A stretch of DNA of 64,000 nt from Lachnospiraceae bacterium (GCA_045601665.1 JAZRZZ010000010.1:100370-164369); one strand, 5' to 3'; counted from the first letter of the stretch, positions 48,247 to 53,192 are shown. Numbers and translations are program-made. Notes: generated by a model from the sequence alone, not told the origin.

Positions 48247-48834
48247 CTATCTCAAACCGTTTGCAAAAACCCATGAATAAAACATCTCTTTTGGTGGCTT
48301 TGTATATTCATAATCAATAAGAGACGGTATAGTCTCTATAATGTTTATGGTTTGTTCAAGTACCTCATTGATTGATTTACCTGCGACATCAATTTCAACT
48401 TCGTTAATAAGAGGATTTCGCCTTATATTTTTCTCATTCATCTTTTCCTGCAATTCATAATCTATAAGCCCGTTATTTGGCCTATTTTTCATCTGTTCCT
48501 GAATTTGAGGCAAATCGCTACATATAAGTTTTATTGTGATAAAATCCGTTCCTTTAAAAACAACAGGAATATCTGCCGTTCTCAAATCATCTATATCAGA
48601 TGCAATTATATTTTTATAACCAAGCTTATGAAAACACATAAGCATTGCCACTTGATTTTCCCAGCAAGTAAGCTCTTCAAGCTCTCCTGTCATAGGTTCT
48701 TTGCCATCTCGTGATATAAACTCTGGTACCATATGCTGCTCAACACATGTTGTTTTATAGTGCTCAAGCAAGCCGTTACATAGGGTGGTTTTGCCTATAC
48801 CACTTGCTCCTGTAATAAAAATAAAATCTTTCAT
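48247..48834 (-). CDS. P-loop NTPase / small-molecule-kinase-like protein of unknown function
   Basis: Walker A ITGASGIGKTT in the first 20 residues. 195 aa. The gene is visibly AT-rich relative to its neighbours. RBS GAGGAA. Confidence 0.7.
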   Translation of the reverse strand: MKDFIFITGASGIGKTTLCNGLLEHYKTTCVEQHMVPEFISRDGKEPMTGELEELTCWENQVAMLMCFHKLGYKNIIASDIDDLRTADIPVVFKGTDFITIKLICSDLPQIQEQMKNRPNNGLIDYELQEKMNEKNIRRNPLINEVEIDVAGKSINEVLEQTINIIETIPSLIDYEYTKPPKEMFYSWVFANGLR

Positions 48835-48850
48835 CTTTGTTTCCTCGTCA

Positions 48851-48886
48851 ATTCTTATTTATCTGTTCGACCTATTCTTATTTATC
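48851..48886 (-). repeat. Two 13-bp direct repeats in the 5' leader of the P-loop gene
   Basis: ATTCTTATTTATC occurs at 48851-48863 and 48874-48886 (23-bp period), between the predicted promoter and the RBS. Confidence 0.6.
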
Positions 48887-48892
48887 AAACTG

Positions 48893-48921
48893 ATTATAGC
48901 AAATATATCATAAGTGTTCAA
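48893..48921 (-). promoter_or_regulatory. Sigma-A type promoter of the P-loop gene
   Basis: The minus strand reads TTGAAC, 17 nt spacer, TATAAT. Confidence 0.6.
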
Positions 48922-48937
48922 TGTCATAAGCAACTCA

Positions 48938-48970
48938 AAACCACTTTTGAAACAATATCAAAAGTGGTTT
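48938..48970 (-). terminator. Hairpin terminator after the cupin gene
   Basis: AAACCACTTTTGA-N7-TCAAAAGTGGTTT is a perfect 13-bp stem, with TTTTGAG following on the minus strand. Confidence 0.7.
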
Positions 48971-49039
48971 CGTAATACTTCTATATAGCCGTCGCACTAA
49001 TACCCAAGTTTTTTCTCGGGGGGTGTTGGGCACAGACCA

Positions 49040-49402
49040 TTAGGTTTTGTTTCTGTAAGCGTATGAAAAATCAATTGGAGGAGTCGTAATGGATAGGTAT
49101 ACGAACGGAAGATCACTGTTGTTTTTGAAACCGTGAATATCACATGCTGCAAATCGAACCACATCGCCTGCGGAAAAAGGCTGTTCGCTGTTCTGCAGCA
49201 AGAGAGTTCCGGAACCTTGTAGTGCATACCATATTTGTTCCGATACATCGTGCATATGTCTTGGCTGTACAGCGCCCGGTTCTAGGTGTACTTCGGTAAT
49301 CGTCACACGCTTGGAGGAAGAATTCTCAGGGGATAGAAGTTGGCGAGAACATACCCCGGGATTGGAGAAAATGGCTATGCTTTCTTTGTGTATGAATTCC
49401 AT
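49040..49402 (-). CDS. Cupin domain protein
   Basis: About 120 aa with the cupin motif pattern (VHLEPGAVQPRHMHDVSEQIWYALQGSGTLL ... GDVVRFAACDIHGFKN). The ATG at 49402 follows GGAGG. Confidence 0.75.
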   Translation of the reverse strand: MEFIHKESIAIFSNPGVCSRQLLSPENSSSKRVTITEVHLEPGAVQPRHMHDVSEQIWYALQGSGTLLLQNSEQPFSAGDVVRFAACDIHGFKNNSDLPFVYLSITTPPIDFSYAYRNKT

Positions 49403-49469
49403 GGATTGACCTCCGTAATGGATATATAGGGAGAAAGAGATAATAATCAAAGCAAATAAAAGAGAAACA

Positions 49470-49616: not shown

Positions 49617-51929
49617 TCAATCATCCAAATACTTGTTATAATATTTGTGAACCAAATTGTCGAGAAAGGATTCGTTGAGCTCGCCGAAGTTATCCTGCAA
49701 CAGTTTCTTGATTCCGTCAATCTTAAGATTAAAATTTTCATCCGATGATGCATCTGCTTTCTCGAACGTCTTCACTGTAGCGGTTGTGACATTCAAAAGC
49801 AACCAACTGTTGAAGAGAAGAGTCAACTGACGACCGTTCATTGAAACGATGAAGTTCGAATTGCGTATTTCATTCGGATTCACGGTCTTCTTCATTGAGG
49901 AAGGAACGTTGTCAACGAAAAGATTGGTAACCTCGTCCGCATTTGTCAATCTCATATAAGAGAGATTCTTCGGTACAGCAACCGATTCGGGAAGAACACC
50001 CTTTTTGCCCTTTTTATACTTGGAATAGTCAGACACGGTGCGAGGTTTATAAAATGCGAATTCTTCTTCGTTCTTTGTGTTAGGAGTATAGTCCGGAACA
50101 AAGCCCGCAAAATTATCAAGCTCGTCGGTATCTTCAAAGACAATTTTCTTTCCGTTTCCGAATTCCTTTTCGAGGTTGGCTTTGCGAACACGCTCTTTGG
50201 TGATCTGTGCATCAAGAAGATCATGTTCGGCCTTACGCTCGCGTACGCGTTTTTTGAATTCCTCGTAAGCAGCATCGCTTTGGGAGTCTTCGTTGTCAGA
50301 GTCCGTTGTCATGGAATAGTCCGGAACAAAGCCGTGGAAGCCTTCCGTCAACTCGTCGGTATCTGCAATGTCAAATTTGCGCTTCGGACGCTGGGTAAAG
50401 GCCTTGTCGACTTCTTTGTTCGGATCTGCAAAAGAAGAGCTACTGTTGGGGATGAAGCTTTCTTCTGAAATTGCGGAAGCGTCACCGATAACCTCTTCAA
50501 TAATGTCATAATCTACAGGAACCGTAATCTTTGTGTCCTGAATATCGGTAGGACGAAGCGGGACAGATTCGTAATCGGAGGTGTCTCTTGTGTAAAGGTT
50601 ACGATCCGGAAGGATTTCTTCCACGACAGAGCCCGCAGGTTCGTTGTCAAAAGTATCCTCGACTCTCTGATTCTTTGCCATAGAAGCCTTTTTGAAATTG
50701 GCAAGAAAATCAGAAAACGCATTGAAATCATCGTCCTCCGACTCTTCGGAAGCTTCCATAGAAGGGGTGTCCGTGGTCTCGTAAGGGAAGGACGGCGTTT
50801 CTGCTGTATCGTATGCAGAAACGTTATCTACAGCTTCAAATTGGTGGAATGAATTCGTCGTTTCTTCGAAGCCGAAGTTCTCCGATGATGCGAGAGGAGT
50901 GGCAATGGAATCTACAATGTTGTGATCGTCAAATTCTTCTTCTTGCACACGTTCTACTTCGACAAAAATCGGTTCCGGATCGTCCTGCTTCTCCGGTTGT
51001 GCAAAAGGCGATGCAAATAAACCGGAAAAAACGGAAGAGTCTTCGTCGTTAGAATCGTTTTCAGCAAAGGCTTCTTCAGCAGACGCATCCTCTTCGGAAA
51101 CAGAATCCGAGGCGAGATCGTCTGTCGTCGTCTCTTCTCTGTCAAAGAAAGAGGTTTCTGTGGTTTCGGGCTCTTCATTGGAGTCGGACTCCATGGAGAA
51201 CACGGTGTCATCCGTGACATCGGCAACTTCGATGGACTCCTGTGCTTCAACAGCAGTTGAAAACTCGTTGGATTCGGTTGCTGTCGCCGCATCCATTGTG
51301 TCGGGAGCGGTTACGAACGCGATATCCTCGGAAGGAGCACTCTCCTCTACAGGAGCAGGGGCATCGCTTGTAGCGGTTACATCCTCGGAAGGAGCACTCT
51401 CCTCTGCCGGAGCAGAGTCATCGTTTGTAGCGGTTACATCCTCGGAAGGAGCAATCTCCTCTGCCGGAGCAGAGTCATCGCTTGCAGCGGTTACATCCTC
51501 GGAGGGAGCAATTTCCTCTGCCGAAGCAGGGTCATCGCTTGCAGCGGTTGCATCCACGGAAGGAGTGACCTCCTCTGCCGGAGCGGGAGCGGGAGCTTCC
51601 GGTGCCTGCGGGGGAGCGGAAGAAGTACTCTCGTTATTTTTCTTCTTCTTAGATTCTACCAAAAAAGCCGTAAACATCTTAAATGCCCGTTTGGTATCCG
51701 GTTTCTCTACATAAATCTTGTAGGTATTTTCACGCATGGAATATTCGTAGTAACCGTTCATTCCTTGTCCGGTCATATATTCAACAAAGCTCTGCGCAGC
51801 ATCTTCTTTCTGAAAAGCAAATACGGAAACGGTTTCAATCGTTGTTCCTTCAAGCAGAGGTGTGTTGCAATCGGTACACATTGTGGTACCATTGGGATAT
51901 TCCTTTTTGCAAATAGGACAATAAGGCAT
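49617..51929 (-). CDS. Zinc-ribbon protein with long acidic low-complexity region, unknown function
   Basis: The ATG at 51929 follows GGAGGA. The N-terminus MPYCPICKKEYPNGTTMCTDCNTPL is a 4-Cys ribbon, followed by a small alpha/beta module. About 500 aa of D/E/S/T/P-rich sequence with 19-aa repeats comes next, then a structured C-terminal region of about 130 aa. Confidence 0.7.
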   Translation of the reverse strand: MPYCPICKKEYPNGTTMCTDCNTPLLEGTTIETVSVFAFQKEDAAQSFVEYMTGQGMNGYYEYSMRENTYKIYVEKPDTKRAFKMFTAFLVESKKKKNNESTSSAPPQAPEAPAPAPAEEVTPSVDATAASDDPASAEEIAPSEDVTAASDDSAPAEEIAPSEDVTATNDDSAPAEESAPSEDVTATSDAPAPVEESAPSEDIAFVTAPDTMDAATATESNEFSTAVEAQESIEVADVTDDTVFSMESDSNEEPETTETSFFDREETTTDDLASDSVSEEDASAEEAFAENDSNDEDSSVFSGLFASPFAQPEKQDDPEPIFVEVERVQEEEFDDHNIVDSIATPLASSENFGFEETTNSFHQFEAVDNVSAYDTAETPSFPYETTDTPSMEASEESEDDDFNAFSDFLANFKKASMAKNQRVEDTFDNEPAGSVVEEILPDRNLYTRDTSDYESVPLRPTDIQDTKITVPVDYDIIEEVIGDASAISEESFIPNSSSSFADPNKEVDKAFTQRPKRKFDIADTDELTEGFHGFVPDYSMTTDSDNEDSQSDAAYEEFKKRVRERKAEHDLLDAQITKERVRKANLEKEFGNGKKIVFEDTDELDNFAGFVPDYTPNTKNEEEFAFYKPRTVSDYSKYKKGKKGVLPESVAVPKNLSYMRLTNADEVTNLFVDNVPSSMKKTVNPNEIRNSNFIVSMNGRQLTLLFNSWLLLNVTTATVKTFEKADASSDENFNLKIDGIKKLLQDNFGELNESFLDNLVHKYYNKYLDD
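51305..51595 (-). repeat. In-frame 57-bp tandem repeat, about five copies
   Basis: The copies encode APAEE(I/S/V)(A/T)PSEDVTA(A/T)(S/N)DD(S/P)-type 19-aa units and are near-identical at the DNA level. Confidence 0.85.
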
Positions 51930-51989
51930 ATGTATTCCTCCAATCATTGATTTGAGTCAAATAGAAATGATTTTTTTCATATAACATTT

Positions 51990-52018
51990 ATTATATACAA
52001 ATGTGCTTGTATTTTCAA
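51990..52018 (-). promoter_or_regulatory. Sigma-A type promoter of the large zinc-ribbon gene
   Basis: The minus strand reads TTGAAA, 17 nt spacer, TATAAT. Confidence 0.6.
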
Positions 52019-52066
52019 TAAAAAAACAAGAATAATGCGATTTTTTTGTTGGAAAAGCAAGCAATC

Positions 52067-53023
52067 TTATTCTTCTTCGAACAATCGGGAAAAATGTTCC
52101 TCTGTAAGGAAGGAAACGATGGAAGGATCGGCGTTCGGAAAGGCCTCATGAAGTGCTTTTTCCATGTATTCCTGACAGAGTAGCAAGCGTTCTTCCTCAG
52201 TGTCGGTTTCGGGAAGCTTTGTACAAATAAAATCTTTTGTCAAAGACGACTGCTGCCAGTCTCGAATGCGTTTGAGAAGAGCGGTTTCTTCGGCAACCGC
52301 CGCCTTTTGTGCGGGATAAGCACGAAGTGTATAGATCCCGCAGGCAATCAAAGCCAAGAAGACTAGTCCCATAACAATCTGTGCAAACAGAGAGTTGAAG
52401 TAAGGAAAGATATCAAAGTAGGCAAGGCCTACCAGAACGAGGCCAATGAGTCCGAGAACTAACAGCATAATACCGGTGCTGAGTGAGTCCTTTGCTTTGA
52501 AATCCGCAGAAGTGTATTCCGTTTGACCACCTGAGCGTAGGTTGATCTGTGTCATCTCCTGTACGGAACTTTCCTCCATGAGTTCATTGAAAAAAGATTC
52601 CTCTGCTGCTTCTAAGGGCTCCGACTCCGATTCGGGCAAAGCCTTCTCGGAAGCTTCGGAATCCTCTTCTGCATCGAATTCGGAAAGATTATCTTCTGCT
52701 TCGTATTGTGATAGAGCTCTGTCAGTTGAGGAACGACCGGATTCTACAGAGATAAAAACCGCATAGGCACGTCGGATTCGCATTGTGTCATCGGCAGAGG
52801 CGTACAATTCGAACCGATCGGTCTCTGGATTTTTGATAACTTCCGTCGCGATCTTGGAATAATTCAAATATTCCAAGAAACGTTTTAAGACACGCTCGCT
52901 CTTATAGGTATATACGAGTTCCATATTTGTTTCTGACACGGTATCCTCCAAAGGAGTTCCGCAATCCGCACATACGGTAATGCCGTCTTCGTATTCGGTG
53001 TGACATTTGGGACAATAGGCCAT
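52067..53023 (-). CDS. Zinc-ribbon membrane protein, paralog of the downstream gene, unknown function
   Basis: The ATG at 53023 follows GGAGGA. The N-terminus MAYCPKCHTEYEDGITVCADCGTPL is followed by the same small alpha/beta module, an acidic linker, two TM helices and a C-terminal helical tail similar to that of the 771-aa paralog. Confidence 0.7.
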   Translation of the reverse strand: MAYCPKCHTEYEDGITVCADCGTPLEDTVSETNMELVYTYKSERVLKRFLEYLNYSKIATEVIKNPETDRFELYASADDTMRIRRAYAVFISVESGRSSTDRALSQYEAEDNLSEFDAEEDSEASEKALPESESEPLEAAEESFFNELMEESSVQEMTQINLRSGGQTEYTSADFKAKDSLSTGIMLLVLGLIGLVLVGLAYFDIFPYFNSLFAQIVMGLVFLALIACGIYTLRAYPAQKAAVAEETALLKRIRDWQQSSLTKDFICTKLPETDTEEERLLLCQEYMEKALHEAFPNADPSIVSFLTEEHFSRLFEEE

Positions 53024-53192
53024 AATGATTTCCTCCATACAATCTATAAATAAAATTATACTGCAAGGAACAAAAAATCGCAAGAAAAACATATGCAAAT
53101 GCTTTTTTTTATGGTATTCTATTGTTGTTTATATAGCGTCGGAGAAGGTGCTCTGACGACAGGAAGAGAATAATAAATTGCGGAGATGAGTT

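Follow-up and report, generated by a model that had tools for sequence, protein, structure and literature searches.

A zinc-ribbon membrane protein and its soluble paralog encoded side by side in Lachnospiraceae: a possible membrane-attached tether or scaffold pair

In a 64,000-nucleotide stretch of DNA from a Lachnospiraceae bacterium (GCA_045601665.1 JAZRZZ010000010.1:100370-164369; this whole stretch is hereafter the window), two adjacent genes on the minus strand raise the question of what is done, jointly or separately, by two proteins that resemble each other at both ends and differ in between. An initial annotation had described them as paralogs with three common elements, namely an N-terminal zinc ribbon, a small alpha/beta module and a C-terminal helical tail, and had suggested a sensor/partner or scaffold arrangement. 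As detailed below, both genes are members of one uncharacterized, vertically inherited Lachnospiraceae family, in which the protein of the shorter gene (small) is membrane-anchored and that of the longer gene (big) is soluble. As to their role, a membrane-attached tether or scaffold pair, and not a transmembrane sensor, is the reading that we favor, with a probability of about 40%; what is said below on structure and evolution stands on much firmer ground than this mechanistic part.

A scan of the window for open reading frames (ORFs) confirmed both genes as real, and a consensus scan located a promoter-like site ahead of each:

52067..53023, minus strand: small gene, 318 amino acids (ORF and translation)
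49617..51929, minus strand: big gene, 770 amino acids (ORF and translation)
53055..53083, minus strand: promoter-like site of the small gene, TTGCGA-17-TATAAT (10/12)
51990..52018, minus strand: promoter-like site of the big gene, TTGAAA-17-TATAAT (11/12)

The likely start codons, at 53023 (small) and 51929 (big), open a conserved M-[PA]-Y-C-P in both proteins, and each is preceded at 6-7 nt by a ribosome-binding site, GGAGGA, so that the initial annotation was right to assign one to each gene. It had recognized a promoter for the larger gene only, which did not hold, as the site ahead of the small gene is also a good one.

The two proteins share a head, composed of a four-cysteine zinc ribbon and an alpha/beta domain of about 65 residues, and a helical tail of about 70 residues. 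Within the first ~105 residues, 33 of 106 positions are identical (31%; BLASTP E 8e-13), and family-versus-family profile comparison of the heads by hhalign gave an E value of 8.8e-21, or 6.5e-22 with 21 sequences per side. The head is present in just these two copies in the 2.06-Mb genome. Likeness at the C-terminus was not detected by BLASTP of small against big. By hhalign, using the last 125/130 residues of 21 orthologs of each protein, the tails are alike with a probability of 93% (E 2.7e-7, 68 columns); a hidden Markov model (HMM) of 113 small-family proteins matches the big tail at window positions 49620-49826 (E 2.5e-9); and the last 340 residues of the big protein match the tails of small-family ORFs of 273-607 amino acids from five other genera (E 2e-7 to 3e-6). 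Ribbon, alpha/beta domain and tail, the last of which pairwise comparison misses, are therefore all genuine common elements of adjacent minus-strand paralogs. Both end modules are kept under constraint, and may serve in binding or oligomerization.

The anatomy of the small protein was derived from its sequence and from an AlphaFold2 model built with 113 sequences, with a mean predicted local distance difference test (pLDDT) score of 85.7:

52949..53023, minus strand: zinc ribbon, residues 1-25, CPKC...CADC (Pfam Zn_Ribbon_1, PF13240)
52724..52924, minus strand: alpha/beta head domain, residues 34-100, predicted order beta-alpha-beta-beta-alpha (AlphaFold2)
52508..52723, minus strand: acidic linker (composition, motif conservation)
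52322..52507, minus strand: transmembrane hairpin, residues 173-234 (Kyte-Doolittle windows >1.6; AlphaFold2)
52076..52318, minus strand: helical tail, residues 236-316 (AlphaFold2), the last ~70 residues homologous to the big tail

The ribbon passes the Zn_Ribbon_1 threshold (25.6 bits, cut-off 25), and its cysteines C4, C7, C18 and C21 are invariant in the 113 small-family members. In the head domain, strands at 34-40, 61-65 and 70-76 and helices at 43-55 and from 77 onward were predicted with pLDDT >90. The linker carries a net charge of -19 over residues 101-180, has low pLDDT at 119-132 and 161-167, and ends in a conserved pre-membrane motif, ..EL..ED.V...T....Y(T/V)SA..KA.D..S. Two transmembrane helices follow, at about 180-202 and 208-234 (helices 173-202 and 212-234 in the model), and then a tail of four helices (236-260, 263-269, 276-294 and 300-316) with pLDDT of about 95. 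The outer loop of the hairpin has roughly five to ten residues and no lysine or arginine, residues which flank the hairpin; by the positive-inside rule both termini would be cytoplasmic. A loop this short together with cytoplasmic termini argues against sensing from outside, and the sensor half of the original sensor/partner suggestion found no support, there being no ectodomain.

The big protein (pI 4.1, net charge -105) has no transmembrane segment, nor was any found in its 21 homologs, so that the two helices of the hairpin belong to one protein of the pair only, as had been described. Its orthologs span 700-1144 amino acids. An AlphaFold2 model built with 28 sequences was confident for the head, two helices and the tail only, and the following parts were delimited:

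51855..51929, minus strand: zinc ribbon, residues 1-25, CPIC...CTDC (cysteine conservation)
51630..51833, minus strand: alpha/beta head domain, residues 33-100, Rhomboid_N-like (AlphaFold2, pLDDT ~93; hhalign)
50724..51629, minus strand: polyanionic low-complexity spacer, residues 101-402 (composition; AlphaFold2, pLDDT ~30)
49950..50723, minus strand: conserved middle module, residues ~403-660, ~260 amino acids (invariant columns in 28 sequences)
50316..50363, minus strand: first motif copy of the middle module, DTDELTEGFHGFVPDY
50088..50132, minus strand: second motif copy of the middle module, DTDELDNFAGFVPDY
49623..49832, minus strand: tail, residues 700-769 (hhalign; small-family HMM; AlphaFold2, pLDDT 84-91)

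The four cysteines of the ribbon (C4, C7, C18, C21) are invariant or near-invariant across the family, and the ribbon matches Pfam DZR (PF12773) below threshold, at 13.4 bits. The spacer, of about 300 amino acids and a net charge of about -85, includes a 57-bp in-frame repeat at 51324-51584 (4.6 copies, 89% matches; Tandem Repeats Finder). In the middle module, a helix (404-420) is followed by an invariant acidic/hydrophobic stretch, a long helix (547-586) predicted confidently (pLDDT ~90) and a basic segment rich in tyrosine and lysine. The module contains two DTDEL..F.GFVPDY motifs, at residues 523-538 and 600-614; GFVPDY is invariant across the big family and was found nowhere else in the whole genome. 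The initial annotation had taken some 500 residues between the ends as divergent, acidic and probably disordered; this description stands for the variable spacer of about 300 residues (101-402) and fails for the conserved module at ~403-660.

Several observations bear on the acidic region. Among big orthologs the spacer cannot be aligned and ranges from 250 to 665 amino acids, by up to ~400 among species of the window's genus (hereafter g1), while aspartate and glutamate always make up 22-34% of it; the C-terminus always lies 230-247 amino acids beyond the first GFVPDY. In the ortholog of a second genus, g77 (L040, G094:C3, 2258-4360, minus strand), the acidic/proline-rich spacer is replaced by ~170 residues of repeats rich in glutamate, arginine and lysine, EEERLRKEEEERLRRE, a linker of the type that we take to form single stable alpha-helices, and the head, the GF[VI]PDY motifs and the tail are retained. 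A 602-amino-acid membrane-anchored relative in another genus (L086, G063:C56, 6563-8371, minus strand), whose gene lies downstream of tyrS, contains between head and hairpin an acidic tandem repeat of ~330 residues, (ENDSV/ESSSV)n, which is an independent expansion. Given the variable length and sequence, the constant motif distance, the replacement in g77 and this expansion, the acidic region probably functions as a spacer rather than through its sequence.

The alpha/beta domain of the head was compared with known folds and families. In the models it adopts a generic two-layer alpha/beta sandwich: the best Foldseek match of both heads was PrgK D1, its first ring-building domain, with target TM-scores of 0.83 (small) and 0.87 (big) and a root-mean-square deviation of 1.4 A over 57-59 columns, at weak E values (0.03-0.4) and 7-14% identity, followed by ACT, PII-like and SPOR domains and by PDB entry 2hfv (E 1.3, target TM-score 0.50), which we take to represent DUF2007. 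In sequence, the comparisons point to the rhomboid protease GlpG, whose cytoplasmic N-domain would be the closest relative. Rhomboid_N (PF12122) gave 15.7 and 19.2 bits on the big protein, short of the cut-off of 26.2, and matched 5 of 28 big-family and 3 of 113 small-family members, likewise below threshold; a profile of the alpha/beta domain alone brought GlpG entries 2MJA, 2LEP and 4HDD into the top ten of a PDB search, at non-significant E values of 0.4-0.8. When aligned by hhalign with residues 1-70 of E. coli GlpG, the big family reached a probability of 89% (E 2.2e-6, 36 columns) and the small family 72% (E 3.4e-5, 53 columns, the whole domain). The scores, 33.6 and 27.9, compare with 9 +/- 2 for shuffled sequences (maximum 17), and none of 150 shuffles reached the real values. 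The stretch of GlpG aligned in the PDB profile search agrees with the GlpG query sequence.

The initial annotation had likened this module to a ferredoxin/PII-like fold and to DUF2007-type domains. The fold neighborhood was well judged; the family less so. Neither protein matches DUF2007 (PF09413, cut-off 25.7 bits) at E<=1, DUF2007 is absent from the recurrent matches of the 113 small-family members, and hhalign of the alpha/beta domain alone against DUF2007-like domains was marginal (E 0.0022, probability 13%), so that likeness to the GlpG type appears to fit better. The Rhomboid domain itself (PF01694) was matched by neither protein; the rhomboids of this genome lie elsewhere, and its own rhomboid does not carry this head.

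Beyond these likenesses the earlier view that no characterized system can be assigned was upheld. Searches of Pfam and NCBIfam with both proteins and the family alignments returned only zinc ribbons and weak transmembrane-hairpin or Rhomboid_N matches. PADLOC gave no match for either protein, PHROGs gave zinc-ribbon noise only (E>0.01), and PDB sequence searches with the family profiles yielded only noise or low-complexity matches. Neither the tail nor the big middle module had a credible match in a Foldseek search of the PDB, which gave winged-helix hits of low probability only, and a search of the literature on the family and on DUF2007 returned nothing relevant. Among Pfam models, DUF2207_C (PF20990) was matched weakly over the hairpin in 56 of 113 small-family members (best 27.6 bits, cut-off 33) and was rejected, the matches most likely reflecting similarity between hydrophobic hairpins.

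The two families differ greatly in distribution. The small family has 191 matches in a database clustered at 90% identity, the few named ones being 'hypothetical' or 'zinc ribbon domain-containing' proteins of Lachnospiraceae; at 50% identity, 845 clusters match at E<=1e-30, a number that rises to 1739 at E<=1e-10. The family turned up in 129 of the 300 genera sampled from the genome family to which the window belongs (Lachnospiraceae, by the source names of the matches), mostly in single copy, and also in two other families of the same order. In many members the alpha/beta domain is missing and the ribbon runs straight into hairpin and tail. Beyond the order only the head is found, in widespread proteins of 110-230 amino acids from other Clostridia families (L045-L056), with an MPWCPKCK..Y.EG...C.DCG..LV ribbon, a sub-threshold DUF2007 domain and, in many cases, one C-terminal transmembrane helix; these may represent the ancestral stand-alone head module. 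The C-terminal 340 residues of the big protein were found in two genera only, g1 and g77, among the 300 sampled, and the small family occurs in more than 100 genera lacking any big paralog. The big protein is a lineage-restricted derivative of the small family.

Survey of gene neighborhoods showed that the pairing is conserved in related genomes, a point on which the earlier description could have failed. In every one of the 18 other genomes of the genus, and in two further metagenome-assembled genomes (L003 and L004), the big gene is directly preceded on its own strand by a small-family gene; within the genus this order and strand are kept despite sequence divergence of 38-63%. The head trees of the small and the big protein recover the same species groupings, which indicates vertical inheritance. 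In two genomes the small ortholog is reduced, to 262 amino acids by absence of the zinc ribbon (L023, G007) and to 232 by absence of the alpha/beta domain (L026, G010); both keep hairpin and tail, and the neighboring big gene keeps the full head.

The flanks of the locus are fixed. On one side stand genes for a radical S-adenosylmethionine (SAM) protein, DUF2344, RNase G, L21, Prp, L27 and Obg, and on the other side SNF2, ScpB and ScpA. Between the big gene and the SNF2 helicase gene, the window holds a P-loop kinase-like and a cupin gene (48247-49450, the AT-rich islet). Both are absent from L003 and L004, where the big gene abuts SNF2, indicating that the islet is an insertion in this lineage. 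Across the region 53024-53192 the small gene and the radical SAM (Radical_SAM_N2)-DUF2344-RNase G operon are transcribed divergently; the same layout, with a short intergenic region of ~70-170 bp, is seen at L060, L071 and L074, and a common control region is possible. In a wider sample of full-length matches, the small gene stands beside the radical SAM operon in 8 of 20 other genera, usually divergently and with a gap of ~70-170 bp; at 20 loci sampled for partial matches to the profile, that operon is a few kb away once, and a pdp homolog is nearby several times. The order SNF2, small, radical SAM occurs with no big gene at L064 and L074, and at L058 with a gap of ~2 kb between small and radical SAM. 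Other contexts of the small family are pdp/rlmH, tyrS/birA and LysR/purL. No conserved operon partner was found across 45 neighborhoods, the only recurrent synteny being with the radical SAM operon, SNF2 and pdp. A 355-aa upstream gene in L037, considered as a further paralog, is not one. In g77, a pilin-like gene (SpaA prealbumin fold and T-Q ester domains, 1126 amino acids) and an unannotated gene of 371 amino acids lie between the big and small genes (L040, 4806-9329).

From this context, the big gene probably arose as a tandem duplicate of the small one at the ancestral site by the radical SAM operon, in the lineage leading to g1 and g77. In the simplest history, the duplicate would then have lost the hairpin and acquired the spacer and middle module. 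In the head tree the big clade is fully supported (100/100) and is not sister to the small head of the genus; it sits on too long a branch (1.43) to show whether it derives from the adjacent small gene.

The tether or scaffold reading draws on the shared head and tail, the lack of an ectodomain, the big homologs devoid of transmembrane helices, the behavior of the spacer and the conserved adjacency; the evidence for an ancestral site and for co-divergence, the core-genome context, the lack of any defense or phage signal and the apparent kinship of the head with the GlpG cytoplasmic domain were also counted for it. According to this reading, the small protein would act as a membrane anchor that presents its zinc-ribbon/GlpG-like head at a distance from the membrane. 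Pairing with the small protein, whether head-head, tail-tail or head-tail, would keep the big protein at the membrane, where its middle module and motifs would be displayed to a partner.

A number of observations weigh against a joint role of this kind. Occurrence of the small family alone in more than 100 genera implies an independent function for the small protein; a separate promoter-like site is predicted for each gene; in g77 the two genes are on opposite strands, about 5.6 kb apart; the GFVPDY motifs have no known partner; and the long, non-sister branch of the big head means that its binding specificity may have changed. Most of these facts, together with a report that the GlpG cytosolic N-domain contacts lipid by itself (PMC12615303), would suit two proteins that act independently. 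The big protein would then be a neofunctionalized paralog, a soluble or peripheral polyanionic hub whose own GlpG-like head reaches the membrane or another target, and the adjacency a mere trace of tandem duplication. This is the strongest alternative, and we consider it rather unlikely: order and strand are strict throughout the 18 genomes of the genus even though their sequences have diverged, and the clear constraint on both end modules would be hard to explain if one alone mattered.

The synteny with the radical SAM operon invites another explanation, in which the family would be tied to the radical SAM-DUF2344-RNase G-L21-Prp-L27-Obg genes and might provide RNA processing or ribosome maturation with a membrane anchor and, in the big protein, a disordered scaffold. 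RNase E has a membrane helix and a disordered C-terminal half that serve as anchor and scaffold in cis; the RNase G homolog encoded here has only ~400 amino acids, and the big protein has the layout typical of scaffolds, an acidic disordered region with short motifs. The long-form small gene lies beside the operon in the 8 of 20 other genera mentioned above for full-length matches, in 1 of 20 for partial matches, and in g1 and g77. Against this, the family and these genes never share an operon, with g77 as a possible exception; some half of the sampled members lie elsewhere (pdp/rlmH, tyrS/birA, purL); the neighborhood is one of conserved housekeeping genes, whose synteny may be inherited and not functional; and no sequence link to an RNA-binding or RNase-binding motif was seen. 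A functional tie is improbable. More specific, and decidedly improbable, is a version in which the family forms a membrane skeleton on the cytoplasmic face and the GFVPDY scaffold recruits the products of the radical SAM-DUF2344-RNase G genes. Through pairing in trans, of heads with tails or with other heads, assemblies would be nucleated at the membrane by the hairpin protein; in g1 and g77 these would grow, by addition of the polyanionic paralog, into a brush or scaffold, and a degradosome-like or ribosome-maturation scaffold would thereby be supplied in trans.

A transmembrane sensor with its partner, of the anti-sigma or one-component membrane signaling type, is highly improbable. The fold predicted for the head is also that of small-ligand-binding ACT and PII-like domains, and an N-terminal zinc module on a membrane protein recalls in outline the zinc-binding anti-sigma factors. 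However, apart from the topology already described, the neighborhoods examined show no conserved gene for a sigma factor, kinase or regulator, and neither protein matches a signaling domain of Pfam or NCBIfam. Membership in the zinc-binding anti-sigma factors proper was rejected, as the HxxxCxxC motif is absent from both proteins and no sigma factor gene occurs in any neighborhood examined. Finally, an accessory, mobile or conflict module (defense, toxin or phage-derived), for which the AT-rich two-gene islet directly downstream and the repeat-rich variable region of the big gene might speak, is scarcely credible for a pair that sits at a conserved core-genome site, is inherited vertically across the genus, persists in L003 and L004 where the islet is missing, and drew only the null PADLOC and PHROG results given above.

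Lachnospiraceae rank among the dominant bacteria of gut and rumen, and a great many of their membrane proteins lack annotation. The present work defines one family for which there is no Pfam or NCBIfam model and no literature was found, together with its plan of zinc ribbon and GlpG-like head, acidic spacer, membrane hairpin and helical tail. What is offered at present is a good description of a family rather than a mechanism. The pair amounts to a natural experiment, in which a duplicate lost the hairpin, gained a long spacer and motifs, and kept both end modules; the contrast between hairpin and spacer offers direct and cheap tests of binding by head and tail. A fold like that of the GlpG cytoplasmic domain is moreover placed outside rhomboid proteases, which may help in understanding the GlpG domain, whose role is itself only partly understood. 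Should the link to RNase G and radical SAM genes be true, it would point to membrane organization of RNA or ribosome metabolism in Clostridia.

Compared with known systems, the new element is a soluble giant paralog that keeps both end modules, while a zinc-ribbon-tagged membrane protein and a head resembling GlpG-N or DUF2007 are parts of a known kind. The likeness to the GlpG N-domain, which according to a recent review affects how the protease is oriented in the membrane and touches the lipid bilayer (PMC12615303, where a paper on domain swapping in this domain is also listed), would lie in a small cytoplasmic beta-alpha-beta-beta-alpha domain N-terminal to membrane helices, and the signature AQxFV(D/E)YMxxQG is common to the GlpG N-domain and the big protein. 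The differences are that a zinc ribbon precedes the domain here, that the domain is also used in a soluble protein, and that there is no rhomboid protease core. The DUF2007 proteins of Clostridia share the layout of the head, MPWCPKCK..Y..G...C.DCG..LV and then an alpha/beta domain of ~65 residues; the small-family HMM finds these 110-230-amino-acid proteins at E 1e-12 to 1e-19, and they score 14-19.5 bits on DUF2007, just under its threshold. Unlike the small protein, they have no transmembrane hairpin and tail, and DUF2007 is itself uncharacterized.

With the ring-building motif of PrgK and EscJ (PDB 4W4M, 1YJ7) the head would have in common an alpha-beta-beta-alpha core, at the level of fold only; the PrgK/EscJ domains are periplasmic formers of secretion-system rings, whereas this head is cytoplasmic by predicted topology. 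Membership in the ring-building motif (PrgK/EscJ/SpoIIIAG) was rejected, the order of elements being beta-alpha-beta-beta-alpha here, the domain cytoplasmic and the match one of fold only. TcaA (NCBIfam NF053815) is likewise a membrane protein that bears a cytoplasmic CxxC...CxxC ribbon at its N-terminus. Proteins of the TcaA type cross the membrane once and carry a large domain outside the cell; in the present case the chain is brought back into the cytoplasm by a hairpin. The TcaA type was also rejected, with 13.3 bits against a cut-off of 550, a match confined to the ribbon, and a hairpin devoid of an ectodomain. Tether or hub proteins of the spacer type include ZipA, PopZ and RNase E in its C-terminal half, to none of which a relationship in sequence or fold was found; the analogy would be one of design only, namely folded ends joined by a linker that is long, biased in composition and variable in length, and accompanied by short conserved motifs.

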